NCBI GenBank assembly: GCA_965231005.1
Contig: OZ246405.1
Location: forward strand, 167,204-231,203
Source of the DNA: an uncultured Gammaproteobacteria bacterium
GTDB lineage: Bacteria > Patescibacteriota > Patescibacteriia > Magasanikbacterales > UBA922
DNA: 64,000 bases
Direction of reading: 5' to 3'
The position numbers and the translations under genes are program-made. Numbering within the stretch: position 1 is the first letter of the stretch; every line of letters begins with the position of its first letter. Below, in pieces: positions 34,883 to 63,863 of the stretch. Under the pieces are notes generated by a model. That model was given only the letters and a program-made list of their open reading frames with translations, did no database searches and was not told where the DNA came from.

Positions 34883-34887
34883 AATTG

Positions 34888-36666: not shown

Positions 36667-36712
36667 GATCCACCTCCAATAGGATGGTTGGTTAATGTAG
36701 AGAGCAAGATAA

Positions 36713-39297: not shown

Positions 39298-39515
39298 GAT
39301 GACCTCCTCTGATCCCTAGTCTGTCCCAAAATGGACAAAAACTGGTTTCAAAAATATTTTCTGCGTCTATTACAGATGGTATATAGTCCAAAATTCATTT
39401 TTGAGACCAGTTCTATATAAAACGTAACAAGAAATAGCATGCTCGTCAATTATTGCCGACAAAAATTCACCATGCTATAATCTGCTTGTATATTTAAGTC
39501 CTGACACACTATTAT

Positions 39516-39965
39516 ATGTACGAAGGAAACCTCTATATTGCCTCAGATCATGGTGGATACAAACTTAAAAAACGCCTTGTTCGGTATGTTGAAAATGAAC
39601 TAAAGCGAGAAATTACAGACTTAGGTCCACATGAGTATGACGAGGCTGATGATTATCCTGATTATGTAATCCCACTTGCGCAAAAAGTTGCAAAAGAAGA
39701 TGCACGTGGTATTGTAATATGTAGAAATGGCATTGGTGTGAATATTGCAGTAAATAAAGTTAAAAATATTCGTGCTGGAATTGGATACAATCTAAAAGTT
39801 GCTGAAAGTATGATGAAAGATGATAATACAAATATTCTTTCACTTGCAGGAGACTCACTTTCAGAAGATCATGCCATGGCAATTGTAAAACGATGGCTTG
39901 AAACAGAATTTAGTAGTGCAGAGCGTCATACCCGTCGATTAAAAAAAGTTGCTGAATTGGAATAA
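39516..39965 (+). CDS. rpiB: Ribose-5-phosphate isomerase B
   Basis: LacAB/RpiB family, 149 aa. Its promoter is TTGCCG, 17-bp spacer, TATAAT. Confidence 0.85.
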   Translation: MYEGNLYIASDHGGYKLKKRLVRYVENELKREITDLGPHEYDEADDYPDYVIPLAQKVAKEDARGIVICRNGIGVNIAVNKVKNIRAGIGYNLKVAESMMKDDNTNILSLAGDSLSEDHAMAIVKRWLETEFSSAERHTRRLKKVAELE

Positions 39966-39969
39966 TGTT

Positions 39970-40611
39970 ATGATAAAAATAATCCCATCAACTCTTGTTC
40001 AATCTGAACAAGAATTTCTTTCACAAATCAAAGGACTTGGTAAGAGTCTAGATATGATTCAATTAGATATTGCTGATGGAAAATTTGTAAATAATACGAC
40101 TTGGGCAGATCCTGATGTTGTGAGAACAATAGATCTTGCAGTTGAACTACATTTAATGGTTGAGAATCCACTGGAAGAGTTAGAGCGGTGGAAAGATGTA
40201 AAACAAGTGAATAGAGTTCTTGCACACTATGAATCAATAAAAGATAGAGCACACGAAGCAATTCACAAAATTCAAGATTCATATGAATGGGCAATTGGAA
40301 TTGCAGTAAATCCTGAAACAGATATTTCTGTTCTTGAACCACTACTGCCAGATATTCAACTTGTTATGTTTATGGGAGTGCATCCTGGAAAACAAGGACA
40401 AGGATTTTTACCGGAAACACTCGAAAGAATACGTCAATTTAAAAAACTAAATACTGAACATCTTGTTTCTGTAGATGGTGCAGTAAACGAACAAACAATA
40501 AAAGATATTCAAGAGGCAGGAGCAGACATTGTTTGCCCAGGAAGTGCGGTCTTTCACAGCGATAAAACTCCTGCTGAAAGTGTAGAATATTTACAATCAC
40601 TTGTATCATAG
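39970..40611 (+). CDS. rpe: Ribulose-phosphate 3-epimerase
   Basis: HLMVENP, GVHPG and DGAVN motifs. Confidence 0.75.
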   Translation: MIKIIPSTLVQSEQEFLSQIKGLGKSLDMIQLDIADGKFVNNTTWADPDVVRTIDLAVELHLMVENPLEELERWKDVKQVNRVLAHYESIKDRAHEAIHKIQDSYEWAIGIAVNPETDISVLEPLLPDIQLVMFMGVHPGKQGQGFLPETLERIRQFKKLNTEHLVSVDGAVNEQTIKDIQEAGADIVCPGSAVFHSDKTPAESVEYLQSLVS

Positions 40612-50022: not shown

Positions 50023-50435
50023 AGGAATACTATTACCCTATTGAAACGCGTGGCAAAAATAAAAAAACAGCTACCAACAAACTGATACCTGCAAGCAAAT
50101 AATAGTAAACAAGGTGAAATTCTTCTCTTTCTTGGGTATTAAAAAGACCCTTATGTTTATGTTGCATAGATTTTGTGTTTGTTTTGATGTTTATGTTTGT
50201 TTGGGGCGCATTGTCCCCTGTCTTTGTGTCCCAACTGGCGTGTGAGATCACACGTTATGATACAAAAGCACTACACACCTACATTATTCTCCGATAAAAC
50301 AACAACCGGATGAAAAATATAAATATCTGCTACTTTTATATAACTATTATAGCAGAAAAAAGGGCGTTTGTCAATAGCAATTTTTTGCAAAAAACCTTTA
50401 CTTTGCGATTCAAGTGTCGTAAAATAGTTACATAT

Positions 50436-51413
50436 ATGAAAAAAAATCTTGCAAAACTTCTCAGAGAATTTCTTGAACATTTAGAAATTGAAAAAAATCG
50501 AAGCAGCAAAACTGTTCAAAACTATACCTTCTATCTTTTTAGATTTTTAGAGTGGCATGGAGAAGATAAAGGGGCAAAAAGTATTGATGGTGAGGCTGTA
50601 CGCCAATATCGTCTTTGGTTAAATAGGCTTGTTGATGTTCACGGGGAACCCTTGAAAAAAAATACACAAAATTATCATCTTATTGCATTGCGTTCTTTTC
50701 TAAAATACCTAGCAAAACGTGATATCACGAGTTTGGCAGCAGAAAAAATTGAATTAATGAAAATGCCAGACCGCCAAGTAACATTTTTAGAAGGCACAGA
50801 TCTTAGTCGCCTACTCGAAGCACCAGTAGAAGAATTAAAAAATACAAAAGACCAAAAAAACGCATCAACAAATAGACTGATCGGTCTTAGAGACAAATGT
50901 ATTTTAGAAATGTTGTTTTCAACCGGTCTACGTGTTTCAGAATTGGCAAAATTAAAAATTGAAGATGTAAATGTTGAAAAGGATGAATTTACTATTCAAG
51001 GGAAGGGAAAGAAAACAAGAATTGTATTTTTATCTGAGCAGGCAAAATACTGGTTAAAAGAATACACAAAAGCAAGAAAAGACATGAATCCTCATTTATT
51101 TGTATCTCATGACAAGAACAAAAAGGCAAGAGACAAAAAAGCAGAAACTCTCGAGTCAATTAGTCCAAGGACGATTCAACGAATTGTTCAAAAATATGCA
51201 AAAATAGCTGGAATTACAAAACCAGTAACTCCTCATACCTTGCGACATTCATTTGCAACAGATCTTTTGCAAAATGGAGCAGATATTAGGAGTGTTCAGA
51301 GCATGCTAGGTCATTCTTCTATAACAACAACACAAATTTACACCCATATTACAGATAAGGAGCTTCGAAAGATACACAAAAAATTCCATGGGAAAAAGCG
51401 AAGTGGCGATTGA
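50436..51413 (+). CDS. Tyrosine site-specific recombinase, XerC/XerD-like
   Basis: Catalytic R..K..HxxR..Y (LRHSFATDLL, GHSSITTTQIYTH). AT-rich. Confidence 0.8.
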   Translation: MKKNLAKLLREFLEHLEIEKNRSSKTVQNYTFYLFRFLEWHGEDKGAKSIDGEAVRQYRLWLNRLVDVHGEPLKKNTQNYHLIALRSFLKYLAKRDITSLAAEKIELMKMPDRQVTFLEGTDLSRLLEAPVEELKNTKDQKNASTNRLIGLRDKCILEMLFSTGLRVSELAKLKIEDVNVEKDEFTIQGKGKKTRIVFLSEQAKYWLKEYTKARKDMNPHLFVSHDKNKKARDKKAETLESISPRTIQRIVQKYAKIAGITKPVTPHTLRHSFATDLLQNGADIRSVQSMLGHSSITTTQIYTHITDKELRKIHKKFHGKKRSGD

Positions 51414-51438
51414 CAAATCGTTGTTTTAGCGTTACTAT
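51410..51438 (+). promoter_or_regulatory. Promoter of tRNA-Arg
   Basis: TTGACA, 17-bp spacer, TACTAT, 12 nt before the tRNA. Confidence 0.55.
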
Positions 51439-51450
51439 AGCCCTCATTAC

Positions 51451-51522
51451 GCCCTGATAGTTCAATGGATAGAACACCGGCCTTCTAAGCCGGGAATGTA
51501 GGTTCGATCCCTACTCGGGGCA
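51451..51522 (+). tRNA. tRNA-Arg (anticodon TCT)
   Basis: Hand-folded cloverleaf with a 7-bp acceptor stem containing one G-U pair, D-arm GTTC/GAAC, anticodon loop CTTCTAA and T-arm GTAGG-TTCGATC-CCTAC. Confidence 0.8.
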
Positions 51523-51562
51523 CAATACAAACACCAACCTTTAACTATTAATATAAAAAGGT

Positions 51563-52306
51563 ATGGAAATCACATCACTTTTTACATTCATCATAATCGT
51601 GCTGCTTATCAGCATTCGCCAGGTGAATGAATATCAACGGGGGGTTAAATTTCAGCTCGGAAAATTTACACGAGTAGTAAATCCAGGTTGGAGATTGGTC
51701 ATTCCAATTTTCCAAAGCATGGTAAAAGTAGACATCCGTGTTAAGGCAGTCGATGTTCCTTTTCAAGAAGCAATTACAAAGGACAATATTTCTGCAAAAA
51801 TCAATGCGGTTATTTACTACCGAGTAGCAGATGCAAAAAGAGCAATTATTGAAGTGGAACGATTTAGACATGCAGTCAGTCAGCTTGCACAAACAACAAT
51901 GAGAAATGTTGTAGGTGAAATGGAATTGGATCAATTACTTTCTAATCGTTTAGCTGCTGCACAAAAAATAAAAGAAATTGTTGACGCTGCAAGTGATCCA
52001 TGGGGAATTGAAGTTGAAAGTGTTGAACTGAAAGACGTTATTCTTCCAGACGATATGCAACGTGTTATTGCAAAACAAGCAGAAGCAGAACGTGAAAGAC
52101 GTGCAGTTGTTATTAAATCTGGTGGTGAAGTTGAAGCAGCAGAAAACTTGCGAAGAGCTGCAGAAATGTTGCACAGTCAGACTGGTGCGCTTCACTTGCG
52201 TACATTGAATACACTGAATGATTTGAGTTCAGATCAAAGTAATACTGTGATTTTTGCTCTTCCACTCGAGGTCTTGAGAGCGTTTGAGAAAATGGGAAGC
52301 AGATAA
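51563..52306 (+). CDS. SPFH/band-7 (stomatin/HflK-like) protein
   Basis: N-terminal transmembrane helix then an SPFH domain (RVVNPGWRLVIP...). Confidence 0.8.
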   Translation: MEITSLFTFIIIVLLISIRQVNEYQRGVKFQLGKFTRVVNPGWRLVIPIFQSMVKVDIRVKAVDVPFQEAITKDNISAKINAVIYYRVADAKRAIIEVERFRHAVSQLAQTTMRNVVGEMELDQLLSNRLAAAQKIKEIVDAASDPWGIEVESVELKDVILPDDMQRVIAKQAEAERERRAVVIKSGGEVEAAENLRRAAEMLHSQTGALHLRTLNTLNDLSSDQSNTVIFALPLEVLRAFEKMGSR

Positions 52307-52319
52307 AAAAATTACAAAA

Positions 52320-52351
52320 TAAAAAACCTGGCCTAAGGCCAGGTTTTTTGC
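52320..52351. terminator. Bidirectional terminator
   Basis: AACCTGGCC-taa-GGCCAGGTT flanked by A and T tracts. Confidence 0.8.
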
Positions 52352-52367
52352 TATTCGCAAAACTAAT

Positions 52368-52898
52368 TTATTTTATGATCCAAGGACTTACATCACTTTC
52401 AGATAAGTACTCCCCACTTTCTCCACAAAAAGATCCAGAAAACTCACAATAAGAACCGCTGAGTTTATTATCTTCTGTCCATTCAAAATTGATTGGATTA
52501 ATATCCTTACCAACAACATCATATGTCTTTCTGTCTGCAACAGAATATATTTTTACATACACACTTTCCCACCCATCAGCAAGCATTGCAACAAACTTTT
52601 TATCTGGTGAAAATTCAGCTTTTGAATATCTGTACTGAGAAAAATGAGAACTTACATCTCCATCAACCTCCTTTTTCTGCTCGGCTACTAGCGTAGATTG
52701 ACCTTCCTCGTCTGCAATATAAACATCACCGTTCTTTATATGAACCTGACTTATCTTTTTTTGAGACTGATCTTTTTGCTCAACTATGTTGCTGCCGTCA
52801 TTATAATCACCTTCAGGCGTAACATGTAACTTCACAGACGCGCAACCGGCACCAAATAAAATTGTTATAAAGCAAAGAAAAATTATTCTTTTATACAT
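52368..52898 (-). CDS. Lipoprotein
   Basis: Lipobox LFGAGC after a hydrophobic signal. About 176 aa. Confidence 0.6.
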   Translation of the reverse strand: MYKRIIFLCFITILFGAGCASVKLHVTPEGDYNDGSNIVEQKDQSQKKISQVHIKNGDVYIADEEGQSTLVAEQKKEVDGDVSSHFSQYRYSKAEFSPDKKFVAMLADGWESVYVKIYSVADRKTYDVVGKDINPINFEWTEDNKLSGSYCEFSGSFCGESGEYLSESDVSPWIIK

Positions 52899-52970
52899 AA
52901 TATATTTATTAGCAATACTCAAAAACCTTAACAAGAAGCCATTGACCTGTCAAATCAAAAAACAGAGATC

Positions 52971-52999
52971 TTGACACAGGTGGCAGATTGAAGTATAAT
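52971..52999 (+). promoter_or_regulatory. Promoter of tRNA-His
   Basis: TTGACA, 17-bp spacer, TATAAT. Confidence 0.6.
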
Positions 53000-53023
53000 T
53001 GTCTTCGACAAAGCCCCTAGCGG

Positions 53024-53097
53024 GGTGGCTATGGTGTAGTGGTAACACAGAGGCTTGTGGTGCCTTTATCACGGGTTCGATCCCCGTTAGCCACCCC
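53024..53097 (+). tRNA. tRNA-His (anticodon GTG) with an encoded G-1
   Basis: Hand-folded. G-1 pairs with discriminator C. Acceptor GTGGCTA/TAGCCAC. Anticodon loop TTGTGGT. T-arm ACGGG-TTCGATC-CCCGT. Confidence 0.8.
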
Positions 53098-53116
53098 TTT
53101 GGGGGTTTTTTATTTG
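53089..53116 (+). repeat. tRNA-His 3' end plus terminator, repeat copy i
   Basis: AGCCACCCCTTTGGGGGTTTTTTATTTG. An identical 28-mer recurs at 54081-54108 and a diverged copy at 53569-53606. Confidence 0.8.
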
Positions 53117-53120
53117 GATC

Positions 53121-53149
53121 AAAAAAACACCAGAGTTGGTGTTCTTTTG
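53121..53149. repeat. Cassette-boundary hairpin module 1
   Basis: AAAAAAACACCA-gagt-TGGTGTTCTTTTG. Confidence 0.75.
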
Positions 53150-53182
53150 TTATAGGAAAAGCCGTATAGGTCTAGTCATGAT

Positions 53183-53500
53183 CTACCCCCCTGCCTCAAA
53201 TATCGTTGCCAGATCTTCAATTTCCTCTCTTGTCCATCCATCATAATATTCGCTCCAAAAAGGATGTTCTTTATCCTCAAGCATCGCTCTATAGTCGTAG
53301 GACAGACTCTTAAACGAGACTGGGGATGGGTTTTCAGACTCCAGCACACTACGCTCTTTCTCAAATTCACGCTGGAATATTTTCATCACCCTGTCTGTAG
53401 GTGCCAACTGCTTGGCTTTTTCACTGACCCTGTTTAGTATCTCCTCACCCATCTCCTTTACATACGCAATTTCCCTATATGGGCTCAATTCACTATCCAT
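53183..53500 (-). CDS. Hypothetical 105-aa acidic protein (cassette F6)
   Basis: ORF between boundary modules. Its promoter TTGTTC, 16-bp spacer, TATAAT lies at 53528-53555. Confidence 0.5.
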   Translation of the reverse strand: MDSELSPYREIAYVKEMGEEILNRVSEKAKQLAPTDRVMKIFQREFEKERSVLESENPSPVSFKSLSYDYRAMLEDKEHPFWSEYYDGWTREEIEDLATIFEAGG

Positions 53501-53568
53501 ATGAAAATATTAATAATAATCTCCCTCATTATAGCACCAATCAGAGAATGAACAAAGTTCTAATACCG

Positions 53569-53606
53569 CCCACTAACCCACCCCAGTGGGGGTTTCTTTT
53601 TTTACG
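53569..53606 (+). repeat. Diverged copy ii of the tRNA-His 3' end plus terminator module
   Basis: CCCACTAACCCACCCCAGTGGGGGTTTCTTTTTTTACG compared with CCCACTGAGCCACCCCTTTGGGGGTTTTTTATTTGCAC. Confidence 0.6.
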
Positions 53607-53653
53607 CTAATTTTCTTGTTTTTGTTGAGGGAAATATCTTGGCTCTAACCAAA

Positions 53654-53683
53654 CAAAAAAACACCATGGTTGGTGTTCTTTTG
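53654..53683. repeat. Cassette-boundary hairpin module 2
   Basis: AAAAAAACACCA-tggt-TGGTGTTCTTTTG, followed by a second hairpin GCGGTTT..AAACCGC. Confidence 0.75.
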
Positions 53684-53740
53684 TGCTCGCGGTTTTTTGG
53701 GAAACCGCGAAAACCTTTGGCCTTTCCTCTCACGTAAGGA

Positions 53741-53974
53741 TTACCGACGAGAGCAGGAATCGCGAGGCAAGGAAAGCACTGTTCCCCGGCCACCGCACCG
53801 AGAACAGCGGGATCTTGCAGCGCGCCTGCTGCACCCTCCTCCGCCACATGCGGGACATGTCGGGCAGGTCATCGTGAACCCGTGCCCTCCACATCTTGTG
53901 CACGTTGAAGAGAACGTAACTTCGCCACTTCCATCACACCTGGGGCAAGTGACTCTAATTTCCTTCTCATTCAT
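53741..53974 (-). CDS. GC-rich 77-aa DnaJ-type zinc-finger miniprotein with four CxxCxGxG repeats (cassette F5)
   Basis: CPRCDGSG, CTRCGGHG, CPTCPACGGGG, CSRCGGRG. SD is AAGGAGG. The promoter TTGACA, 17-bp spacer, TATATA lies at 54008-54036. Confidence 0.6.
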   Translation of the reverse strand: MNEKEIRVTCPRCDGSGEVTFSSTCTRCGGHGFTMTCPTCPACGGGGCSRRAARSRCSRCGGRGTVLSLPRDSCSRR

Positions 53975-54071
53975 ACAACCCTCCTTGGTTGTTGAAACAC
54001 ACATTCATATATAGCATGGCAGTTCTTTCTTGTCAACTGTACAACACTCTTTATATCGAGGATACTAATAT

Positions 54072-54108
54072 CCCCCACTGAGCCACCCCTTTGGGGGTTT
54101 TTTATTTG
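54072..54108 (+). repeat. tRNA-His 3' end plus terminator, repeat copy iii (identical 28-mer)
   Basis: CCCCCACTGAGCCACCCCTTTGGGGGTTTTTTATTTG. Confidence 0.8.
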
Positions 54109-54163
54109 CACTGTGTCTCGCCGAAGCCCTGTCTGCCGACAGGCAGGTTTAGTGAAGGCGGAT

Positions 54164-54192
54164 CAAAAAAACACCATTACTGGTGTTCTTTT
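54164..54192. repeat. Cassette-boundary hairpin module 3
   Basis: AAAAAAACACCA-ttac-TGGTGTTCTTTTG. Confidence 0.75.
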
Positions 54193-54303
54193 GTTATCGG
54201 GCGATTCGTATTGAATCACCCATCTCCTTCAGCCCGATATAGCTCGGGCCAGGCCTCTGCAAAAAGCAGGAGTGAAAGGTGGCTTTCTCAGCCACTACGT
54301 TTT

Positions 54304-55476
54304 TCATCGGCTTTTCCGACGGCGTCTATTCCTTGGGCTAGGTTTTCTTCGCGGTCTTCTCAGTCGGATAAAGGACAAACCCTCGAGTGCACGAATGGCA
54401 GACTGCTCTTTGGATTTTTCCGCACTGGATCCAACACCAATCCCAATTCGCTGCTCTCCGACGAACACTTGTCCGACGAACCAAGTCTGCGAACCTGACC
54501 TTTGCTCAACCTCATAGGTTGGCAACACGCCGAGCTGCTCTAGTAACCTGCGCTGCAATTTCTCGACTGCGCTGTTTGGGGTCCCTTCAGCATACTTCTG
54601 GACCTCGAGCTCGACTTGTGGAGTAGAGGCCGGAGGTGGTTCAGGTTCAACGTTACTTGGAGCCCGAGACGTTGTTGCTGGAGAAGTTCGTTTGTTTGTG
54701 GAAGATAGGGTTCGTGAAGGTTCGCTGCGAGGAGCTGTTGGCTCAACTCGAGTGAACAACTGTGGATGCATTCTGGCGAGCTTTATCAGTGCGCGCCTTG
54801 CAGCTTCTTCCATGGACGCAGGCTTAGTACTGCCCATGCCAGATGCGAAATCCTGTCCATCGATGAGAGCAACAGACCGGACTCTGCCGGTTGGAATCTT
54901 CCCGTTCTGCTTCACAGTCCTCATGCCAGGCTTTTTGCCAAGCCGAGTAACCAGAAGCCGAAACCTCACAAAAGGAGTGTTGAGATGTCTCTGTCTGACT
55001 TCTGGGAGCCGAGAACAAACAAGTCTGTGAACAAACGACCTTGCTTCTCCATACCCGACATCAAGGTTAATCGCCTGAATGATTGCTTCCATTGCACAAG
55101 CAACCTTCATGTAGCTGCGACCAATACGGAGGCTCTTCTTTTGGTACACAGTCCCGCGGATGTCGAGATGCAAGCCAAGACTGATTCCAATATCAGCAAG
55201 ACATCGGTTGCTAACCAGCTCTCGGCAGTATCGAGTCAGTTCGACTAACGTCTCCCCTGGTGCTCGATGGCTGACAAGATATCCTCTGACAATACCTTCG
55301 AGAAGTCCGTCACCGATCCACTCGAATTCTCTGTTGTCGCCGAGCTCGCTTGCTTCGGGATTCTCCCAGACAAATTCCTTGGTAGTCAGTGCAACGAGAA
55401 GAACTCGCTTGTCTTCGAACGTCACACCGATCTTTTTCTCAACTCGCGAAACAAGTTCGCGGTCAGATTGGTGCAT
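54304..55476 (-). CDS. GC-rich RNase III-like protein with two C-terminal dsRBDs, a Pro/Ser/Thr-rich linker and an Arg-rich tail (cassette F4)
   Basis: The signature NREFEWIGDGLLEGIV parallels ERLEFLGDSILS. Two dsRBD C-terminal halves are present (GSTKPASMEEAARRALIKL and GSSAEKSKEQSAIRALEGL). The second catalytic Asp appears replaced by Cys in hand alignment (ACAMEAI versus ADTVEAL). The promoter lies at 55565-55593. Confidence 0.7.
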   Translation of the reverse strand: MHQSDRELVSRVEKKIGVTFEDKRVLLVALTTKEFVWENPEASELGDNREFEWIGDGLLEGIVRGYLVSHRAPGETLVELTRYCRELVSNRCLADIGISLGLHLDIRGTVYQKKSLRIGRSYMKVACAMEAIIQAINLDVGYGEARSFVHRLVCSRLPEVRQRHLNTPFVRFRLLVTRLGKKPGMRTVKQNGKIPTGRVRSVALIDGQDFASGMGSTKPASMEEAARRALIKLARMHPQLFTRVEPTAPRSEPSRTLSSTNKRTSPATTSRAPSNVEPEPPPASTPQVELEVQKYAEGTPNSAVEKLQRRLLEQLGVLPTYEVEQRSGSQTWFVGQVFVGEQRIGIGVGSSAEKSKEQSAIRALEGLSFIRLRRPRRKPSPRNRRRRKSR

Positions 55477-55617
55477 GTGCACCTCCCAATATGCTATGAA
55501 GCTCTACCCTTCTTGTGCGAAGAGGAGCTTAGTTTTTATATGCCCATGTTTTGTGGGACGTATAAACATATCATAACACAGTTTTTTTGTCAATAAAGCG
55601 AACTTTTTAATGAAATA

Positions 55618-55649
55618 TCAAAAAAACACCATTTTCTGGTGTTCTTTTG
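55618..55649. repeat. Cassette-boundary hairpin module 4
   Basis: ATCAAAAAAACACCA-tttt-CTGGTGTTCTTTTG. Confidence 0.75.
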
Positions 55650-55800
55650 ATTGGCCCCAACAATGATGTTCGTCATGTCAGAGCGGTGTTTGGTCAACTG
55701 CAAGCAGCTGCCTAAGTAGGGAGCATTCGTCAACGAGTGACAAATGATTCCAAGGGCCAAAGGCCAGAATCTGGAGGACTATGATTTTTTTTGCTGGCGA

Positions 55801-56214
55801 CTAGCTCAGCAGTTCGCGGATGCTCGTGCTAAGCGACTCGCTCAGGTGTTGATCGACAACGAGCTTGCCATCGACCTTGTTCATGATGACGACATGGGTC
55901 ATGCCATTCGAGGACATTTCTGCCTCGAGCAACAGCTGATACATGTCGATGAGTTTGACAGGAATCTTCTTGAGCATCTCTGGGTTTCTCGCAAACGATT
56001 GAATCGACACGATGTTGCCAGTGAGATCAGGAAAAAGCGCGTCTCCATTCTCGTCCCACAGAGGGGAATCTTCAGGTTCGCTCACAGTGACCACTGCGAC
56101 GCGTCCATCGGACCAAATCCTTCTCAGCTTCTCCTCCTCTCGTCGAGTGAAGGAGCATCCGAAATGATCTGCAAGAACCCAACAGGCCCTATCATACTTA
56201 TCATACCTATCCAT
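55801..56214 (-). CDS. GC-rich hypothetical 137-aa protein (cassette F3)
   Basis: The promoter TTGACA, 16-bp spacer, TATATT is at 56248-56275. The leader carries the inverted repeat GTCCA-caaaa-TGGAC. SD is AAGGAGGTGAAAG. Confidence 0.55.
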   Translation of the reverse strand: MDRYDKYDRACWVLADHFGCSFTRREEEKLRRIWSDGRVAVVTVSEPEDSPLWDENGDALFPDLTGNIVSIQSFARNPEMLKKIPVKLIDMYQLLLEAEMSSNGMTHVVIMNKVDGKLVVDQHLSESLSTSIRELLS

Positions 56215-56328
56215 CTTTCACCTCCTTGTCCATTTTGTGGACGCTTTAATATAGCATAAAAAAAGCTTTTTGTCAAGGGGGAATCCTGAATATTTATTTA
56301 AAATAAAGCATTTTTTTGCAAATTTAAT

Positions 56329-56347
56329 ATCAAAAAAACACCATTTT
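56329..56347. repeat. Cassette-boundary module 5 (truncated, 5' arm only)
   Basis: ATCAAAAAAACACCATTTT then AACAATGATG. The 3' arm present in module 4 is deleted. Confidence 0.6.
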
Positions 56348-56398
56348 AACAATGATGCCTTTTTGGTTTAGGGCAATGCTCCAAGATTGCCCCTCCCC

Positions 56399-56761
56399 CT
56401 ATGAATGTTCTTGTTCGAGTCGACGGAGAATCCGCAGCGCAGACTCTGCGAATTCGTGATCCTGGTCAAACCGATCTGGTATGTTTCGCTGTGTGTTACC
56501 GATAGACGTACGAGAAAACTGTGGGAACGCCACATGAGTCGCTGGAACATCCATGTGGCTGAACCAGTAAAGAAAGTAGATGCACAGCTTTTGCGCTCGA
56601 CTCAGTGGCTCACCACTCTTGTGAAAACCGATCTTGTCAAGATCGACTCCGCATACGTCAGCACAAACTGCAATCACACGCTCTGTTTTGTATCGCCGCC
56701 GCTCCATTGCAGCACTTCGCAGCACCTGTCCGGGTGGATCTGTACTATAGATGCACCTCAT
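56399..56761 (-). CDS. GC-rich 120-aa protein with a possible DnaA-C-terminal-like HTH (cassette F2)
   Basis: Translationally coupled to F1 through an ATGA overlap. LSRAQKLCIYFLYWFS..HVAFPQFSRTSIGNTQ loosely parallels the DnaA domain IV pattern. Confidence 0.45.
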   Translation of the reverse strand: MRCIYSTDPPGQVLRSAAMERRRYKTERVIAVCADVCGVDLDKIGFHKSGEPLSRAQKLCIYFLYWFSHMDVPATHVAFPQFSRTSIGNTQRNIPDRFDQDHEFAESALRILRRLEQEHS

Positions 56762-57222
56762 GCCAGGTGTGGACGCGTCTTGCGCGCACAGGCCAGGAAG
56801 CAGCGCGCAATCGGACCGTGCCAGTACGAGTAGAGGATGAACTGCAGTGGCTGGCTCGTGTCAGGAAACATCCGAGTGATCATCCTTCCTCCAGGCCGAT
56901 CAAACCGATCACGCTCTGGCTCGACACGAACAGGAATCCGCGGGTGATCCACGCGGATCCATGCCGGACCAGCTTGTGTGTGGATCGAAGCGCAGAAAGG
57001 CCCGTCGGTCGAACCTTCCTTGACCATGCAGCCAGTGACGTACTCTCCGGTCTCGAGAAGATGTCGAGCCTGCTCATCGGTGATGGTGTGCTGCACCACT
57101 CGCCGTCCTTCTTCGTCGCGCGGCACCGTACGTGCGGCCGGCGTGCGATCCCACAGACCGTCGTGCCACTTGCGATCACGACGCCTGCCAAAACCAATAT
57201 CTCTGCCGAGTCCCATAGTCAT
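56758..57222 (-). CDS. GC-rich hypothetical 154-aa protein (cassette F1)
   Basis: Start at MTMGLGRD with SD GGAGGTCATC then ATG, identical to the island E gene 1 SD. The promoter TTGACA, 17-bp spacer, TATAAC lies at 57257-57285. Confidence 0.5.
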   Translation of the reverse strand: MTMGLGRDIGFGRRRDRKWHDGLWDRTPAARTVPRDEEGRRVVQHTITDEQARHLLETGEYVTGCMVKEGSTDGPFCASIHTQAGPAWIRVDHPRIPVRVEPERDRFDRPGGRMITRMFPDTSQPLQFILYSYWHGPIARCFLACARKTRPHLA

Positions 57223-57346
57223 GATGACCTCCGTGTTGTAGGAACGTTGCCATAGGGTTATACATGAAAAAGATGAAGATGTCAATTAGGAAAACAAAAA
57301 AACCTTTTTTAAGGTTTACAATATATTTAAATATGAATTTTTGAAT

Positions 57347-57818: not shown

Positions 57819-58490
57819 ATGCGAATTTTACTTGTTGAAGATGAGAAAGATATTGTCCAATTTTTAAAGCCAAGCCTTGAATCTGAGTGTTTTGTAGTTG
57901 ATGTTGCAACAGATGGAGAGCAAGGATCTTTTCTTGGACCTACAAACAACTACGATCTCATTATTCTGGACAACATGCTTCCAAAGAAAAATGGAAGAGA
58001 AGTGTGCACAGAAATTAGAGAAGCTGGAAAGACAACACCTATCCTTGTTTTGTCTGTAGTAGAAGAAACAGATCAGAAAGTTGGCCTTCTCAATGCAGGA
58101 GCAGATGACTACATGACAAAGCCATTTTCCCTAGGGGAATTGCTTGCCAGAATGCATGCACTCCTTCGACGACCAAAGAAAATAGAAAGCCAAATTCTGC
58201 AAATCGCTGATCTTACTTTGGATACACGAAAACACCTTGTAAAAAGAGGTGGAAAGGAAATTTACCTAACACGAAAAGAATTTATTTTCCTTGAATACCT
58301 TATGAAAAATCCTGGTGTTGTCTTGTCCAGAGGAATGATAATGGAACATGTCTGGGATATGAATGCTGACCCTTTTTCAAATACAATTGAATCACATGTA
58401 TTAACATTGAGAAAGAAAATTGATACAAAGGGAAAGAAAAAATTGATACGGACTGTTCCAGGAAGGGGTTACAAAATTGAAGCAAGCTAA
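57819..58490 (+). CDS. OmpR-family response regulator
   Basis: Receiver domain (D..D..K) followed by a winged-helix trans_reg_C domain. Confidence 0.85.
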   Translation: MRILLVEDEKDIVQFLKPSLESECFVVDVATDGEQGSFLGPTNNYDLIILDNMLPKKNGREVCTEIREAGKTTPILVLSVVEETDQKVGLLNAGADDYMTKPFSLGELLARMHALLRRPKKIESQILQIADLTLDTRKHLVKRGGKEIYLTRKEFIFLEYLMKNPGVVLSRGMIMEHVWDMNADPFSNTIESHVLTLRKKIDTKGKKKLIRTVPGRGYKIEAS

Positions 58491-58684
58491 AAAATTCAAG
58501 AAAAAAATAATAAAAGTCTGTTCAAGGCTTTTTTTGTTTGTTAAAAGTGAAAATGTTGTGACTTTATATGGAATTTATATTTAATAAATAAAAAATCGAA
58601 ACCGAATTTATCTTTACAAAGATTTAAAGACATATAATTAATACAAAAGACAACTTTCTATCAAAAAAAATAAATACAGACAAC

Positions 58685-59386
58685 ATGAATATCCCAAGAA
58701 CTGAGGGGAAACGTGTTTGGAGGGATTTTCGCGAGACAACATTTAACGAGAGGCTGAAAATCGGATATAGCCAAGTGAAACAACGTTGGGCCAACGCTCC
58801 TGCTCATTTTACTAATAAGTCATTACAAATTTGTGGACATCCAGTTATGAATAGTTGGGAAAAAAACTACATGAAATTACTTGCAAACATTGCCACAAGT
58901 AATGGTGGCGATATTGTGGAAGTCGGATATGGGATGGGAATCTCTGCAAAATTCATCCAGACAAACATAAATATTCAATCTCACATAATAATAGAGGCAA
59001 ACAAAGATGTTTTTGAGAAAGCAGTTGAGTTTGCACAGCAAGATTCAAAAAAAATAAAACCCGTATTTGGATTTTGGGAAGAAATTATACCAGAAATGGA
59101 AGATAACTCTATTTCTGGTATTTTGTTTGACACATATCCACTTTCAGAAGATGAAATCCACAGAAATCACTTTCCATTTTTCAAGCATGCATACCGAATA
59201 TTAAAACCAGGAGGTGTCCTTACATATTATTCTGATGAAGCAACAGATTTTTCAGACGACCACGTTCAAGAGCTGGTCGATGCAGGATTTAGCAGAATTA
59301 ATAGTTTTCTTTGTGAAGTTAACCCACCTCCAGACTGCAAATATTGGAAGAGCAATACGATCCTTGCGCCCATCATTGTTAAATAA
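58685..59386 (+). CDS. Guanidinoacetate N-methyltransferase (GAMT/RMT2) family SAM-dependent methyltransferase
   Basis: Matches vertebrate GAMT along its length: ICGHPVMNSWEKNYM, VEVGYGMG, ILFDTYPLSEDE, LKPGGVLTYYS and NPPPDCKYW. Confidence 0.7.
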   Translation: MNIPRTEGKRVWRDFRETTFNERLKIGYSQVKQRWANAPAHFTNKSLQICGHPVMNSWEKNYMKLLANIATSNGGDIVEVGYGMGISAKFIQTNINIQSHIIIEANKDVFEKAVEFAQQDSKKIKPVFGFWEEIIPEMEDNSISGILFDTYPLSEDEIHRNHFPFFKHAYRILKPGGVLTYYSDEATDFSDDHVQELVDAGFSRINSFLCEVNPPPDCKYWKSNTILAPIIVK

Positions 59387-59486
59387 TAAGACACAAGACA
59401 CAAACCAACATATCAAATCGCAAAGTTTGTATCTTGCATCTTAAGATTTAATCCGAGGCTCTTTCACAACCCTAAGGAGGGAAAAT

Positions 59487-59894
59487 ATGAGCACACAAAC
59501 ACAAACATTTGGAACGCACCTCATACTGGATTGCTATGGTGCAGATCCCAAAAAACTTCAAGACGTTGGTCTCATCTTTCGCTTTCTGGATGAATTGCCT
59601 GCACTCATTGGAATGCAGAAAATTGGCCCTCCCCAGATGGCAAATTTCGATGACGAAGCAATTGCTGGTGTGACTGGCGTCATCCAGATTGTTACGTCAC
59701 ACATAAGCATCCACACATATGCGCTCAAGCATTGTTTTTTTATGGATGTCTTCTCGTGTAGCGAATTTGACCCACAAACGGTCATTGACCACGTCAAAAA
59801 GGCATTTTCCGTCGATACAATCGAACATACCGTAGTCTCACGTGGAAAACACTTTCCAGTCAACAACCTCAGCCAACCGGAGCAGAAGCAATGA
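59487..59894 (+). CDS. S-adenosylmethionine decarboxylase-like pyruvoyl enzyme of the small SpeH/class 1a type
   Basis: GTHLILDCYG and the TSHISIHTY Ser-cleavage motif. SD is AAGGAGGG. GC above the host level. Confidence 0.65.
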   Translation: MSTQTQTFGTHLILDCYGADPKKLQDVGLIFRFLDELPALIGMQKIGPPQMANFDDEAIAGVTGVIQIVTSHISIHTYALKHCFFMDVFSCSEFDPQTVIDHVKKAFSVDTIEHTVVSRGKHFPVNNLSQPEQKQ

Positions 59895-60613
59895 ATCCGT
59901 TCAAAGCAAGAGCTGGAACACGAAATGACATCGACGCAATCATTGCGATTGAAAAACAGGCTTTCAAAGACTCGGGAGCACCAACATTCGGCCGCAAAGA
60001 GATTGAATCTTGGTTCGATGTTCACCCCGAAGGTGTCCTTTTGGCAGAGAAAGACGGAAGAGTCGTCGCATTTACGTACATGCAACTGATTCACCTAGAT
60101 CCAGAAAACCTGCCCCCATTCAAAACGCATGATGAGCTGTCTGACAATAGCTCGAGTCGAGCAACGCATACGCCTGATGGCAACTGTTTTCACGGATTCA
60201 CTCTTGATTCGATTAGTCCTGGTGCTGGACTTTTTTTGCTTGAAAAGGCAAAAGAGTTTGTTAAACAAAAAGGAAAACCCTATTTGTTTGGCACATCCCG
60301 AATCGTTGGGTTCAACAATGTCATGCGTGCTGTAGCACTCATGAACCCAGAAATCACGCTGACAAAAGAGCTTGAACAGAGCATTGCCGTATGGTATGCT
60401 AGAAAAACTGCAGCGATGGTAAATGGATGGATCGGGAAACTCATACCAGACACGCCCAACACAGCAGACCTCGTCCTCCCTGAACTCGACTCTCCAGATC
60501 CAATCCTTGGGTTCTACCTCATGAATGAGTGTGAAATGCACTCGTTTCTACCAGACTTCATTCATGATCCGCCCAGCCGTGGCCATGCCTTCCTCTGCCT
60601 TTGGCATATTTAG
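59891..60613 (+). CDS. GNAT-family N-acetyltransferase-like protein
   Basis: ATGA overlap with the preceding gene. GNAT-like core. GC above the host level. Confidence 0.5.
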   Translation: MNPFKARAGTRNDIDAIIAIEKQAFKDSGAPTFGRKEIESWFDVHPEGVLLAEKDGRVVAFTYMQLIHLDPENLPPFKTHDELSDNSSSRATHTPDGNCFHGFTLDSISPGAGLFLLEKAKEFVKQKGKPYLFGTSRIVGFNNVMRAVALMNPEITLTKELEQSIAVWYARKTAAMVNGWIGKLIPDTPNTADLVLPELDSPDPILGFYLMNECEMHSFLPDFIHDPPSRGHAFLCLWHI

Positions 60614-60625
60614 GCAAAAACATCT

Positions 60626-62773
60626 TTGTGTCCCTATATGTTCATCTTTACCTACACGGCCGCAACCTTAGCACTCATTTGCACTGGGTTCGCGGCTGTT
60701 GTCTTTTATAAAAAGAAACAGGATAAGTTAGCTCAATTTCTTGTCCTTATTATGATATTCACTGCTTGTTGGCTTTCTAGCAATAGTTTGGCAGATATAG
60801 CAAAGACAGAATCTTCGCTTATATTATTTAGCGGATTAGCAGTGATTTCTGGATTTTTTCTACATAGCTTTTATCTGTGCTTTGTAGAATTCTTCATTGA
60901 TAAATCACTCTCTTTACGAAAGAAAATTTTTTATGTTGCACCAAGTATTCTTGCTGTGCCATTCGCGTTTTCCAAATATAGTACAGCGGCTATATATTTT
61001 CCAGAAGGACAACCTGCGCAAATTGAACCTGGAATACTTTACTACTTCTTTATTCTTTTTAGTTGGTTTGTATTTATATATAGTATAAATCGACTCAGAA
61101 TTGAACATAAAAAATCAAATTACCAACGAAAAGCACAAATTGCCTATATCCAACTTGGCTTCCTTATCATGGCACTTTTTGGTCAATTGTTTTCTGTCAT
61201 ACTCCCACTATTTGGAACAATCCATCTTTTTAACCTTGGACCACAATTTTCACTTTTCTTAATAGTACTCATCGCATACGCAATCTTTAAACACAAACTG
61301 TTTGATATTAAAATTGTTATCCAGTTGGGTATTATTTATTCAATACTTTTGGCTGGAATTGTCTCGGTCTATCTTGCAGTACTCTATGTGTTACTCTTCC
61401 TTCTAAAAGAAACCGATAGTCATATTATTTTCTTAATCAGCTCGCTTATCACGACTATCATTGGTATTTTTGGTGTCCCTCCAATTCAATTGTATTTCCA
61501 AAAAATTACAGATAAAATTTTCTTTAAAAACAAATACAATTATTCAAAATCTTTACGCAGATTAAGTGAAATTGTTTCTAGAAATATTAATCTAAAAGAC
61601 ATCCTTGCAAAGGCAGAAGATGCTTTGAAAGATATATTCAAGGTTGAAAACGTTTGTTATCTTCTTATCAGTGAAAATGCAAAATTGATTAAACATGAAA
61701 AATTCAAAAAGATAGACAAAAAACATGCAAAATATCTTGCAAAGGCATTGAGTGGAAAAAAGAAATATATCATTACATCTGAAATCCCGTATATCCTAAA
61801 AAACAATAAAAGATTAGGAGAAGAACAGACCGAAGCTTTGGACAAAATTGAAAAACTCTGCAAATCAAGAAAGCTTGAAATTGTTATTCCGCTTTTTGCA
61901 AATGACAAGTTGATCGGTGCATTTTCTTTATCGAAAAAATTATCTGGAGATGCATATACTGACAGAGATATTCACCTTTTGCAAACATTTTCTCACCAAG
62001 CTGCGCTTGCACTTGAAAAATCCAAATTGTATGAACAAGTTATTGACCATACAAAGAATCTTGAAAGACGTGTTTTAGAAAGGACCTCAGAGATTAAAGA
62101 ATTGCAGGAAAATCAGGCACAAGTTATGATGGATATTTCACATGGATTGCAAACACCACTGACAATTGTCAAAGGAGAACTAGATCTTCTTCAAAATAGA
62201 ATCCAAGATACACATGTTTTTGGGCGCTTAGAAAAATCTATTGATCGCATTTCAAAATTTATTGCTGCAATGCTTAATTTGTCTCGTCTTGAAACAGAAG
62301 CAAACACCGACAAAAAAGAAAAAATAAATATAAGTCTTCTTTTGGAAGAATTGCTCGAATACTTTACAACATTGGCAGAACAAAAAAGTATTTCAATAAC
62401 CTCTGAAGTCGCAAAAAATATCTTTGTGCTTGGCTCACGCAACAGACTAGAAGAACTTATTACAAATCTAGTCAGCAATGCTGTAAAATATATTGCGAAT
62501 GAAAGGAAAATTACAGTAACACTTGAAAAAGAAGAAAAAAATGCTGTCTTGCGTATTTCTGACACGGGAATTGGTATTCATAAAGAAGAATTGCCAAACC
62601 TATTTAAACGTTACTACCGATCAGAAGAAGAGCATAATACTATCCAAGGAACAGGATTAGGGCTTGCAATTTGTAATAAGATAGTCCAAAATCATCATGG
62701 TCGTATTTCTATTACAAGTACTCTTGGAGAGGGCACAACCGTAGAAGTCATGCTTCCTCTTATAAAGCGATAA
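60626..62773 (+). CDS. Sensor histidine kinase with a polytopic N-terminal membrane domain
   Basis: About 8 transmembrane helices, a GAF-like segment, HisKA H-box MMDISHGLQTPLT and HATPase_c boxes (ISDTGIGI, GTGLGLAI). Confidence 0.8.
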   Translation: MCPYMFIFTYTAATLALICTGFAAVVFYKKKQDKLAQFLVLIMIFTACWLSSNSLADIAKTESSLILFSGLAVISGFFLHSFYLCFVEFFIDKSLSLRKKIFYVAPSILAVPFAFSKYSTAAIYFPEGQPAQIEPGILYYFFILFSWFVFIYSINRLRIEHKKSNYQRKAQIAYIQLGFLIMALFGQLFSVILPLFGTIHLFNLGPQFSLFLIVLIAYAIFKHKLFDIKIVIQLGIIYSILLAGIVSVYLAVLYVLLFLLKETDSHIIFLISSLITTIIGIFGVPPIQLYFQKITDKIFFKNKYNYSKSLRRLSEIVSRNINLKDILAKAEDALKDIFKVENVCYLLISENAKLIKHEKFKKIDKKHAKYLAKALSGKKKYIITSEIPYILKNNKRLGEEQTEALDKIEKLCKSRKLEIVIPLFANDKLIGAFSLSKKLSGDAYTDRDIHLLQTFSHQAALALEKSKLYEQVIDHTKNLERRVLERTSEIKELQENQAQVMMDISHGLQTPLTIVKGELDLLQNRIQDTHVFGRLEKSIDRISKFIAAMLNLSRLETEANTDKKEKINISLLLEELLEYFTTLAEQKSISITSEVAKNIFVLGSRNRLEELITNLVSNAVKYIANERKITVTLEKEEKNAVLRISDTGIGIHKEELPNLFKRYYRSEEEHNTIQGTGLGLAICNKIVQNHHGRISITSTLGEGTTVEVMLPLIKR

Positions 62774-62780: not shown

Positions 62781-63863
62781 GTGAAAAACATACTAATAAT
62801 CTCAGCGTCTGCAGGTGCAGGTCATGTACGAGCTGCAGAAGCTATCAAAAAGACTGCTGGAACAACATATCCAAACCTGAATGTACGCCATATTGATCTC
62901 ATGGATTATATTAGCTTACCTGTAAAAAAAATGGTTGGGACATACAATATTCTTGTTAAGCAAGCCCCTGAGCTCTGGGGATTTATGTATGAAAAGACAA
63001 ATGCTCCTGGCATTACAAAGCAGCTGAAAAAAATGAGCAAAAAAATGAGAAAACTTAATGCTCAAAAGTTAAATGAATATATTAAAAAACAAACACCTGA
63101 TTATATTTTATTCACTCACTTCCTTCCCCCAGATTTAATTGACCAAGAATTGTTTGGACACATTCCAACAGGAACACTCATTACTGATTATGATTTACAT
63201 GAACTTTGGATAAATAACAAAGAAAGTCATTACTTTGTGGGATCTAAAAAAATTTCTTGGAAACTAGAAAAAAGAGGGATTAATAAAAATAAAATCACTG
63301 TTAGTGGACTTCCTGTTGATCTAATTTTTTATCAAGAAAAAAATAAAAAAGCACTATTAGAAAAATACAATATTAGTAACAGCAAACCAATTATTCTTGT
63401 GCTGTCTGGTGGGCATGGACTTGGACATAGTGATAAAATAGTAAAAGCACTTTTTAAGAAAAAAGAAGAAGTGACAATAATAGCAATTGCAGGTCAAAAT
63501 GAAGATCTTTATAAAAAATTGCAACATCTGACTCCTCCAAAATATATAGACTACACTGTATTGAATTGGACAGATTCAATTGATGAGTATATGCGCATTG
63601 CTGACATCATCGTAAGCAAGCCAGGTGGAATGACAACAACTGAATGTTCAATCCTAGAAAAATATATGATTGCTGTTGACCCAATTCCAGGACAAGAAGA
63701 GCAGAATTCAAGATACATTATGGAAAAAGGATTTGGTGCAATTGCAAATAATGCTGAAGATTTACTATTTCTTATTGAAGAGGAGTTAGAAAAACCTCAT
63801 ATTATAAAAAAGAAAGAACAAGTATCGGCTGCAGAAATTATCTTGGAACAAATCCAAAAATAA
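62781..63863 (+). CDS. GT28-family glycosyltransferase (MGDG synthase / MurG-like)
   Basis: N-terminal ISASAGAGHVRAAEAI and a C-terminal GT-B half. Confidence 0.65.
   Translation: MKNILIISASAGAGHVRAAEAIKKTAGTTYPNLNVRHIDLMDYISLPVKKMVGTYNILVKQAPELWGFMYEKTNAPGITKQLKKMSKKMRKLNAQKLNEYIKKQTPDYILFTHFLPPDLIDQELFGHIPTGTLITDYDLHELWINNKESHYFVGSKKISWKLEKRGINKNKITVSGLPVDLIFYQEKNKKALLEKYNISNSKPIILVLSGGHGLGHSDKIVKALFKKKEEVTIIAIAGQNEDLYKKLQHLTPPKYIDYTVLNWTDSIDEYMRIADIIVSKPGGMTTTECSILEKYMIAVDPIPGQEEQNSRYIMEKGFGAIANNAEDLLFLIEEELEKPHIIKKKEQVSAAEIILEQIQK

Follow-up and report, generated by a model that had tools for sequence, protein, structure and literature searches.

A conserved five-gene cassette in which a GAMT-like methyltransferase, a SpeD-like proenzyme and a GNAT-fold protein lie between a response regulator and a histidine kinase

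The five-gene locus and its conservation

Towards the end of a 64,000-nucleotide stretch of contig OZ246405.1 (GenBank assembly GCA_965231005.1, positions 167,204 to 231,203 of the forward strand; the whole stretch is called the window below), from an uncultured bacterium labelled Gammaproteobacteria and placed by GTDB in the Patescibacteriota, five open reading frames (ORFs) follow one another on the + strand between positions 57819 and 62773. All five have the limits proposed in a first-pass annotation of this DNA, as does the layout that it described, in which an OmpR-type response regulator and a membrane histidine kinase are separated by three genes. The matches of these ORFs to their sequence families are far beyond chance, and the five genes together form an old, conserved, collinear cassette, of which we found no description in the literature that could be searched. 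The features of the locus, all in window coordinates, are as follows.

57819–58490, + strand: OmpR/PhoB-type response regulator of 223 amino acids, with the phospho-acceptor Asp51 encoded at 57969–57971 (Pfam, orthologues)
58512–58535, + strand: terminator-like hairpin and T-run directly 3' of the regulator gene (RNAfold of the intergenic region)
58563–58638, + strand: putative operator/promoter of the enzyme/kinase unit, with TTTATAT at 58563 and 58574, TTTATCT at 58607 and TATAAT at 58633–58638
58685–59386, + strand: GAMT-family (PF27704) S-adenosylmethionine (SAM)-dependent guanidino N-methyltransferase, as predicted, of 233 amino acids (PDB 1xcj/3orh, E about 6e-44)
59474–59480, + strand: Shine-Dalgarno-like AAGGAGG, 6 nucleotides 5' of the decarboxylase start (sequence reading)
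59487–59894, + strand: AdoMetDC-fold (SpeD/SpeH class 1b-like) pyruvoyl proenzyme of 135 amino acids (PF02675, 2.7e-23)
59891–60613, + strand: free-standing GNAT-fold protein of the 'loading-module GNAT-like' (GNAT_L) type, 240 amino acids (AlphaFold, Foldseek, sequence profile)
60626–62773, + strand: membrane sensor histidine kinase with HisKA_7TM, GAF, HisKA and HATPase_c domains (Pfam)

The second and third enzyme genes overlap by four nucleotides (ATGA, 59891–59894), as expected of the translational coupling that had been suggested for them.

The first-pass annotation had described the three enzyme genes as inserted between the regulator and its kinase, as unusual for a reduced genome and as possibly acquired horizontally. 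The distribution of the cassette speaks against the first two statements. A scan of one genome per species with a GAMT-like profile returned 80 prokaryotic loci, and in at least 15 of them the GAMT-like gene, the SpeD-like gene, a third gene (220–250 amino acids, of the 240-residue family or a replacement) and the kinase keep the order seen in the window, all on one strand. The regulator lies upstream in 12 cassette loci, 11 with separate genes and one (L026) in which two of the enzymes are fused. Both flanking proteins are orthologues of those in the window, beyond mere family membership (regulators E 1e-70 to 1e-103, kinases E up to 1e-178). The hosts include Falkow-, Doudna-, Yanofsky-, Uhr- and Parcubacteria/Paceibacterota together with metagenome-assembled genomes (MAGs) labelled Gammaproteobacteria, and are mostly MAGs of the Patescibacteria or candidate phyla radiation (CPR), so that the module is typical of reduced genomes of this kind.

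Fusions and distant relatives extend the same pattern. The GAMT-like and SpeD-like proteins are a single polypeptide in P0077, P0081, P0085, P0102 and P0116 and in loci L011 and L026. Close relatives of the SpeD-like protein are found on contigs whose lengths equal those of contigs with GAMT-like homologues. Four relatives of the 240-residue protein were sampled at 22–30% identity; three (P0230, P0260, P0313) lie in the same cassette, and for the fourth (P0294), whose contig is short, the downstream 7TM-GAF kinase is the only other cassette gene present. In two cassettes the third-position proteins (L004, 7082–7759, and L006, 2077–2742; about 225 amino acids) are 58% identical to each other and show no similarity to the 240-residue family, Pfam or PDB. 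A further variant (L091, 1699–7894) consists of a regulator, a 227-residue protein, a B12-binding radical-SAM enzyme, a 118-residue AdoMet_dc protein, a 224-residue relative of the third gene and a HisKA_7TM kinase. Its 227-residue protein was considered as a GAMT relative and rejected as unrelated; this gene and the radical-SAM enzyme replace the GAMT-like gene.

Base composition and the surroundings could be held to favour a quite different history, in which three unrelated transferred genes landed by chance between a regulator and a kinase in the source genome only. As first reported, GC content rises over the three enzyme genes (0.37, 0.45 and 0.47). At third codon positions (GC3) the five genes in order read 0.28, 0.31, 0.46, 0.46 and 0.26, so that the two inner genes, SpeD-like and GNAT-like, stand at 0.46 among neighbours at 0.26–0.31. 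In addition, the 1–7 kb upstream contain an integrase, a GC-rich island and two tRNA genes. Against a chance insertion, however, stand the same gene order in at least 15 other loci, with orthologous regulator and kinase, and a GC3 that is roughly even across the five genes in 11 other cassette loci. Because this evenness holds at overall GC contents from 0.31 to 0.63, we regard the module as long resident in those 11 genomes. The step at the two inner genes occurs only in the window, where GC is patchy in any case (0.34 to 0.54 per 2 kb), and at most it fits a local exchange of two genes, or just that patchiness. Chance insertion is hardly credible and is refuted as a general explanation, and the GC step is no argument for acquisition of the whole set; a local swap of the two inner genes is possible.

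The surroundings of the cassette contain several features of their own. Just upstream, 50310–57300 looks like an integrated foreign island: a tyrosine-integrase gene (50310–51413), tRNA-Arg (51451–51523) and tRNA-His (53025–53097) are followed by a stretch of 50–60% GC in a genome of about 36% GC. Within it lie several ORFs with no Pfam match and an RNase III-like gene (54304–55482, − strand) that includes a long Pro/Ser-rich linker. Further patches of 46–54% GC lie at 18001–20000 and 32001–40000, where the large ORFs 18392–19678, 34888–36741 and 37489–39297 (all − strand) likewise have no Pfam match. Downstream, on the same strand as the cassette, a glycosyltransferase gene of the MGDG-synthase/diglucosyl-diacylglycerol-synthase type (62781–63863) starts 8 nucleotides past the kinase stop and may be co-transcribed with the kinase; the other cassette loci have no conserved gene 3' of the kinase. 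Directly after it, on the 1.23-Mb source contig past the window (L001, 15256–20702), follow at least 10 tandem T4SS_pilin (PF18895) genes on the opposite strand; this array and the closest relatives, taken together, suggest that the genome is of the Patescibacteria/CPR kind.

The three enzyme genes

The product of 58685–59386 is a real member of the GAMT family (annotated as PF27704; 836 homologues in a large protein collection) and not a generic class I methyltransferase. The first-pass annotation had it aligning along its whole length with vertebrate guanidinoacetate N-methyltransferase. The strong match stands, with residues 34–233 of 233 aligned to residues 18–234 of rat GAMT (PDB 1xcj; E 5.9e-44, 40.6% identity over 217 columns), whereas 'whole length' holds only nearly, as 13 residues of the rat protein are deleted. 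In an alignment of 81 prokaryotic GAMT-like sequences with rat and human GAMT, Glu59 (58859–58861) and Asp149 (59129–59131) of the window protein correspond to rat E45 and D134, which reportedly hold the guanidino group, binding and deprotonating it. The SAM motifs and these two acidic residues are invariant in 81 of 81 sequences, as are the positions of rat G67, G69, E89, W116 and D134-T-Y-P. The 13-residue rat segment C168-K180, on the other hand, is absent from all 81. The backbone of L170 and T171 within it reportedly holds the carboxylate of guanidinoacetate. Adjoining the gap, the prokaryotic sequences have a nearly invariant TY-YSDE with two acidic residues. Because the Glu/Asp pair is kept, the loop is gone and TY-YSDE is present, the alignment suggests that the enzyme recognises the guanidino group and receives the other end of its substrate in a different, acidic site.

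Compared with vertebrate GAMT (PDB 1xcj, 3orh; GAMT/RMT2 family PF27704), then, the window protein shares the class I SAM methyltransferase fold, about 41% identity, the SAM motifs and the Glu/Asp pair, but it lacks C168-K180, carries TY-YSDE, has no amidinotransferase partner and is encoded by a prokaryotic cassette gene inside a two-component operon, sometimes fused to the decarboxylase. These differences bear on creatine-type synthesis, in which the enzyme would turn guanidinoacetate into creatine as in vertebrates. The 40.6% identity, the retained catalytic Asp and Glu and the name guanidinoacetate N-methyltransferase that source databases give to its homologues all favour that route. However, no amidinotransferase was found in the window cassette or in 19 inspected cassette-type loci, such enzymes being found only in a different clade; the loop that presumably binds the guanidinoacetate carboxylate is deleted; and a decarboxylase and a GNAT protein have no role there. 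In a simple neighbour-joining tree, computed with no bootstrap, vertebrate GAMT stands beside two amidinotransferase-linked proteins from Acidobacteria MAGs and not with the cassette clade. A creatine synthase should have both the carboxylate loop and an amidinotransferase partner; the window protein has neither, as far as its own locus shows, and is probably not such an enzyme. We consider creatine synthesis by the cassette very improbable. One study screened two GAMT-annotated bacterial proteins, from Winogradskyella and Streptomyces, for creatine, and its text gives no activity figures for them.

The second enzyme, encoded at 59487–59894, matches AdoMet_dc (PF02675, 2.7e-23) and contains the sequence VTSHISIHTY, in keeping with its first description as a small SpeH-type, AdoMetDC-like proenzyme. 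Its S71, H76 and C91 fall on S63, H68 and C83 of Thermotoga maritima AdoMetDC, which serve in processing and catalysis, and cleavage of the proenzyme is predicted between T70 and S71 (Ser codon 59697–59699). Its closest relatives form a clade (53–69% identity inside it) with the motif IV(T/E)SHISIHTY..K.CFFMDVFSC. The proline of the HTWPE motif is fully conserved in true AdoMetDC and lost in arginine decarboxylases (PMC10407285). The window protein reads HTYAL at this place, the proline is missing in 27 of 28 clade members including it, and HTWPE is present in hits more distant than the clade. The protein also scores 68.7 bits, below the NCBIfam equivalog cut-off of 75.65 for SAM decarboxylase (TIGR03330), and no homologue of the spermidine synthase SpeE was found in the 64-kb window or in any of the roughly 90 loci fetched; phage proteins used as queries for SpeE and agmatinase likewise had no real match. 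It thus fails three features of a true AdoMetDC, namely the proline, the curated cut-off and a local SpeE partner, and is probably an amino-acid (arginine) decarboxylase, as judged from its sequence.

Two precedents exist for such a change of substrate. Li, Liang, Phillips and Michael (2023; PMC10407285, PMC9992855) described SpeDA, an arginine decarboxylase, and SpeDC, an ornithine decarboxylase, both of them neofunctionalised homologues of AdoMetDC. The window protein resembles them in its small class 1b fold, in keeping Ser, His and Cys while losing the proline, in having no spermidine synthase nearby and in belonging to a group that is common in CPR. It differs in that its clade is separate, most members having Thr where Glu would precede the Ser; in that the genes are clustered or fused with GAMT-like and kinase genes and not with speY, hss or speE; and in that it is known from sequence alone. 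Identity to any phage homologue is at most 38%, the best phage relative being speH_1 of Microcystis phage MaAM05 (38%). In that phage (L086, 2507–5285) the genes of two AdoMetDC homologues, a spermidine synthase and an agmatinase follow one another, apparently as a complete arginine-to-spermidine module, in which speH_2 has the true motif and speH_1 lacks the proline. Because it adjoins a bona fide speH_2, speE and agmatinase, we read speH_1, by gene context alone, as a putative arginine decarboxylase.

It could still be asked whether the cassette follows a polyamine route, with the SpeD-like protein a true SAM decarboxylase and the methyltransferase-fold partner using decarboxylated SAM as an aminopropyl donor, or with a SpeE encoded elsewhere. 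The classical partner of SpeD, as a separate protein or in a fusion, is an aminopropyltransferase with a methyltransferase fold, the window protein belongs to the Pfam family AdoMet_dc with all catalytic residues kept, and a true AdoMetDC, a phage enzyme, is known inside the neofunctionalised ornithine-decarboxylase clade (PMC9992855). Yet the diagnostic proline is absent and the score lies under the equivalog cut-off, no SpeE is present in the window or the ~90 loci, the GAMT-like protein shares motif I with GAMT (EVG[FY]G[ML]G), its guanidino-binding dyad is invariant, 56 of the 80 GAMT-like loci have no SpeD-like gene, and another clade uses a pyridoxal phosphate (PLP)-dependent amino-acid decarboxylase instead. 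To our knowledge that family does not act on SAM; nor does the GAMT-like protein show an acidic gatekeeper of the kind we assume for aminopropyltransferases. We consider the polyamine route unlikely.

The third product (59891–60613) has, when searched alone, no significant Pfam, NCBIfam or PDB sequence match, and its first label of 'GNAT-like' is borne out by the AlphaFold model only. A word-index protein search found no relatives and would have made it an orphan; an exhaustive HMMER search gave 176 homologues. Modelling from the single sequence was useless (predicted local distance difference test, pLDDT, 46), whereas a 79-sequence alignment yielded a model with a GNAT fold at pLDDT 97.6. Foldseek returned GNAT structures throughout and matched this model best to the GNAT-like domains of SxtA (4e-11), GphF (5.9e-11) and CurA (1.5e-10), over about 244 aligned columns (overall 4e-11 to 5e-10); ordinary N-acetyltransferases ranked next with about 150 columns, and lower-ranked longer alignments had E values of 1e-6 or weaker. 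A sequence profile of the family also found GphF in the PDB (1.3e-9). Judged from the model, the protein is of the GNAT_L type.

The loading-module GNAT-like decarboxylases of CurA, GphF and SxtA (PDB 2ree, 6mfc, 7uci) are thus the best profile and structure matches over the full 240 residues, and they share with the window protein a C-terminal extension, an S/T-Arg motif and a PDP(V/I)L motif. Unlike them, the window protein is free-standing, has an extra insertion of about 35 residues and has no adjoining carrier or synthase; neither a carrier protein nor a ketosynthase is encoded in the window cassette. In the family, the glycine-rich loop P-G111-A-G113, the place at which GNAT proteins bind the pyrophosphate of CoA or phosphopantetheine, is conserved (G111 and G113 in 73 and 70 of 79 sequences) and R137, Y169 and D226 are invariant. 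In CurA the catalytic His and Thr are reportedly H389 and T355. When these positions are transferred by way of the GphF alignment and index arithmetic rather than by superposition, Tyr209 of the window protein stands in the place of the His (a place with His in 30, Tyr in 26 and Phe in 12 of the 79 family members) and Ser136 in that of the Thr. From these features as a whole, acyl transfer seems more likely than decarboxylation for the modelled protein.

Regulator, sensor kinase and control region

The regulator has a receiver domain (Response_reg, 4.4e-25) with D51 as its acceptor and a winged-helix domain (Trans_reg_C, 1.8e-24). The kinase has about 8 hydrophobic segments in its first 290 residues, making up a multi-pass N-terminal domain, followed by an intact H-box (His506, 62141–62143, in SHGLQTPL) and DTGIG and GTGLG boxes; its more likely start is the ATG at 60638, and the gene call of the source contig begins 4 codons downstream of 60626. 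The membrane (7TM) domain of about 300 residues is conserved in every cassette locus (E 1e-35 to 1e-76). Orthologous regulators and kinases flank the enzymes in the 12 loci with an upstream regulator, which supports the assumption, already made in the first-pass annotation, that the two behave as a cognate pair.

The spacer between the regulator and GAMT-like genes appears to separate two transcription units. A hairpin with a T-run follows the regulator gene in at least 10 of 16 cassette loci, like that of the window, whose stem is poor in G-C pairs and was missed by a terminator scan. We therefore predict that the regulator forms its own unit and the enzyme genes and kinase a second one. In the window, the repeats TTTATAT (58563, 58574) and TTTATCT (58607) are spaced 11 and 33 nucleotides apart, and the last ends 20 nucleotides 5' of the −10-like TATAAT at 58633. 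The regulator-to-GAMT spacers of the 16 loci contain 18 copies of TTATC[TA], whereas shuffled spacers have 4.1 ± 2.0 (none of 2000 reaching the observed count) and the other strand has one, an excess that is suggestive only, as the motif was picked post hoc from the data on which it was tested. Spacings of 11, 12 and 22 nucleotides recur in L005, L028, L007 and L017. Such repeats resemble what the site of a PhoB/OmpR-type activator would look like, and the phased TTTAT(C/A)T repeats are probably a binding site, as yet putative, of the regulator.

Other contexts of GAMT-like genes and a proposed pathway

When the neighbours of all 80 GAMT-like genes were clustered and the clusters annotated, four recurrent contexts emerged, the window cassette being the first (a). 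In context (b) an EamA-like transporter, a GARS-type ATP-grasp ligase, the GAMT-like protein and a kinase of about 560 residues occur together, often with a regulator, and three of the loci also have a SpeD-like gene. In these loci, which make up a conserved unit of their own (L044, L049, L068, L070, L074, L078, L082; records labelled Bdellovibrionales or CPR), the kinase is multi-pass, and there is a small Cys-rich, secreted-looking protein of about 165 residues, which together with the EamA-like transporter is absent in L074. A ribosomal-peptide reading of the ATP-grasp context was dropped, as the window spacer has no precursor-like small ORF. Context (c), mostly from loci labelled Saccharibacteria, has a PLP-dependent decarboxylase of the Orn/Arg type convergent on the GAMT-like gene in 16 loci (PF02784, 2.7e-48), an EamA transporter, a protein with a weak sub-threshold FeeM-type GNAT match (E 1.4e-4) and, in some loci, an NNMT-family methyltransferase. 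L041, L045, L050, L038 and L037 of this context encode a 7TM-GAF kinase whose sensor type is that of the window kinase (E 4e-19 to 9e-7). Contexts (b) and (c) are separate clades in the neighbour-joining tree, and nearly all cassette sequences fall into one cluster.

Context (d) consists of five loci with SxtG/AGAT-type amidinotransferases (9e-112) accompanied by SDR, LysE, EamA, ATP-grasp or polyketide genes. Here (L032, L042, L058, L071, L081) the same methyltransferase family follows an enzyme that can make a guanidino compound, but the guanidino group comes from amidino transfer, there is no SpeD-like or 240-residue GNAT gene and usually no kinase. In L081 an NNMT-like methyltransferase, a PLP-dependent decarboxylase and an amidinotransferase occur together. 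Two of these clusters, both from Acidobacteria MAGs (L071, 3202–7352, and L081, 4997–11684), contain the methyltransferases that group with vertebrate GAMT, and may be regarded as candidate bacterial relatives of the animal creatine pathway. N-methyltransferases of the NNMT/PNMT/TEMT family adjoin GAMT-like genes in three contexts (L026, 7014–7844; L031, 4732–5514; L081, 7488–8261), and their recurrence hints at a second methylation, on an amine.

Overall, 47 of the 80 GAMT-like genes have a histidine kinase at a distance of no more than 4 kb, and a decarboxylase accompanies about half. The kinases, often directly downstream, could also be taken as the target of the enzyme. Yeast RMT2, of the same family as GAMT, is a protein arginine delta-N-methyltransferase, and the GAMT-like enzyme might by analogy methylate an arginine of the kinase, the regulator or another protein and thereby tune signalling, in the way that CheR acts on chemoreceptors. 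The recurrent partners, however, are small-molecule enzymes and transporters, and the methyltransferase is fused to the decarboxylase in several lineages, so that we find protein methylation quite improbable.

Rather, the constant element across these loci appears to be a guanidino methyltransferase, around which non-homologous partners would make a guanidino-amine, form an amide and move the product. The guanidino-amine could come from pyruvoyl- or PLP-dependent arginine decarboxylation or from amidination of a diamine, each of which can feed the methyltransferase; the amide could be formed by the GNAT protein, the FeeM-like protein or the ATP-grasp ligase; and EamA or LysE transporters would move the product. 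This pattern of partners over 80 loci is our main argument for the chemistry proposed here, an argument by inference and not a proof. The first-pass annotation had likewise placed the enzymes and the two-component system together and named a guanidino or polyamine compound as their object; the two do belong together, and a compound of that kind is the most likely chemistry. With a probability of about 80%, we read the cassette as a conserved small-molecule module, so far uncharacterised, that is coupled to a sensor and acts on a guanidino compound.

In its specific form, which we hold to be the best explanation, the pathway would run from arginine through agmatine to N-methyl- and probably N-acyl-agmatine under control of the flanking sensor system, a route on which our own judgement is evenly poised. 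The SpeD-like enzyme would cleave itself at Thr70-Ser71, generating a pyruvoyl group, and convert L-arginine to agmatine; the GAMT-like enzyme, with SAM, would methylate a guanidino nitrogen of the guanidino-amine, although the order of methylation and decarboxylation could be reversed; and the GNAT-fold protein would probably acylate the free amino group from an acyl-CoA donor. Once phosphorylated, the regulator would bind the phased TTTAT(C/A)T repeats overlapping the −35 region of the enzyme/kinase promoter, so that the signal sensed by the kinase would govern how much of the compound, and how much of the kinase itself, is made. N-methylagmatine units do occur in nature, in the Streptomyces antibiotic saskemycin, for which its paper proposes an SznE-like arginine methyltransferase.

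Several points weigh against this interpretation, in whole or in part. The third gene is replaced by an unrelated family in L004 and L006, and both inner genes are missing in L005. The loop deletion in the GAMT-like protein is common to all prokaryotic members, including those linked to amidinotransferases, and so does not by itself exclude guanidinoacetate as the substrate. SAM, arginine and ornithine are all known substrates of AdoMetDC-fold decarboxylases of this size, the proline test splits only true AdoMetDC from arginine decarboxylases, and the phage enzyme mentioned above is a true AdoMetDC within the ornithine-decarboxylase clade. In structure, the GNAT-fold protein comes closest to decarboxylase domains and not to acyltransferases. 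Among the sister contexts, the PLP-dependent decarboxylases of the Saccharibacteria loci match Lys/Orn decarboxylases best and may make diamines rather than agmatine. Finally, there is the post hoc choice of the spacer motif.

A further step would make the cassette a signalling circuit of ultra-small CPR/Patescibacteria, in which a methylated, acylated agmatine-type molecule made from arginine would be released, the 7TM-GAF kinase of the same transcript would be its dedicated receptor and the regulator would raise the amounts of both enzymes and receptor, a positive feedback. This is tentative, and we hold the odds to be against it. The hints are indirect: the kinase gene lies in the enzyme unit behind the predicted repeat-bearing promoter, and EamA or LysE transporters occur in the sister contexts. 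In cqsA-cqsS of Vibrio and lqsA-lqsR-lqsS of Legionella, an autoinducer synthase adjoins a multi-pass histidine kinase and a response regulator. The gene arrangement is the same here but the enzymes are unrelated, so that the likeness is one of layout only, and release of the product and its role as a ligand would be hypothetical. We know of no described ligand for HisKA_7TM-GAF kinases. If the circuit were real, it would represent a new autoinducer chemistry and a new receptor class, of which the contexts with PLP-dependent decarboxylase, ATP-grasp ligase, B12 radical-SAM enzyme and EamA/LysE transporters would be variations, each with a kinase of the same sensor type.

The proposal gives a testable function to a widespread prokaryotic branch of the GAMT family, to a new clade of AdoMetDC-derived decarboxylases and to a 240-residue family that has no Pfam model, and it ties multi-pass HisKA_7TM-GAF sensor kinases to three enzyme families. 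With regard to the evolution of creatine synthesis, the animal enzyme appears from the neighbour-joining tree to have its nearest relatives among bacterial homologues that are linked to amidinotransferases. If the pathway is as proposed, it would add an N-methyl-guanidino branch to polyamine biochemistry. Because the module has been kept across many classes of bacteria with tiny genomes and few regulators, it likely matters for the CPR lifestyle, possibly in interaction with host cells.

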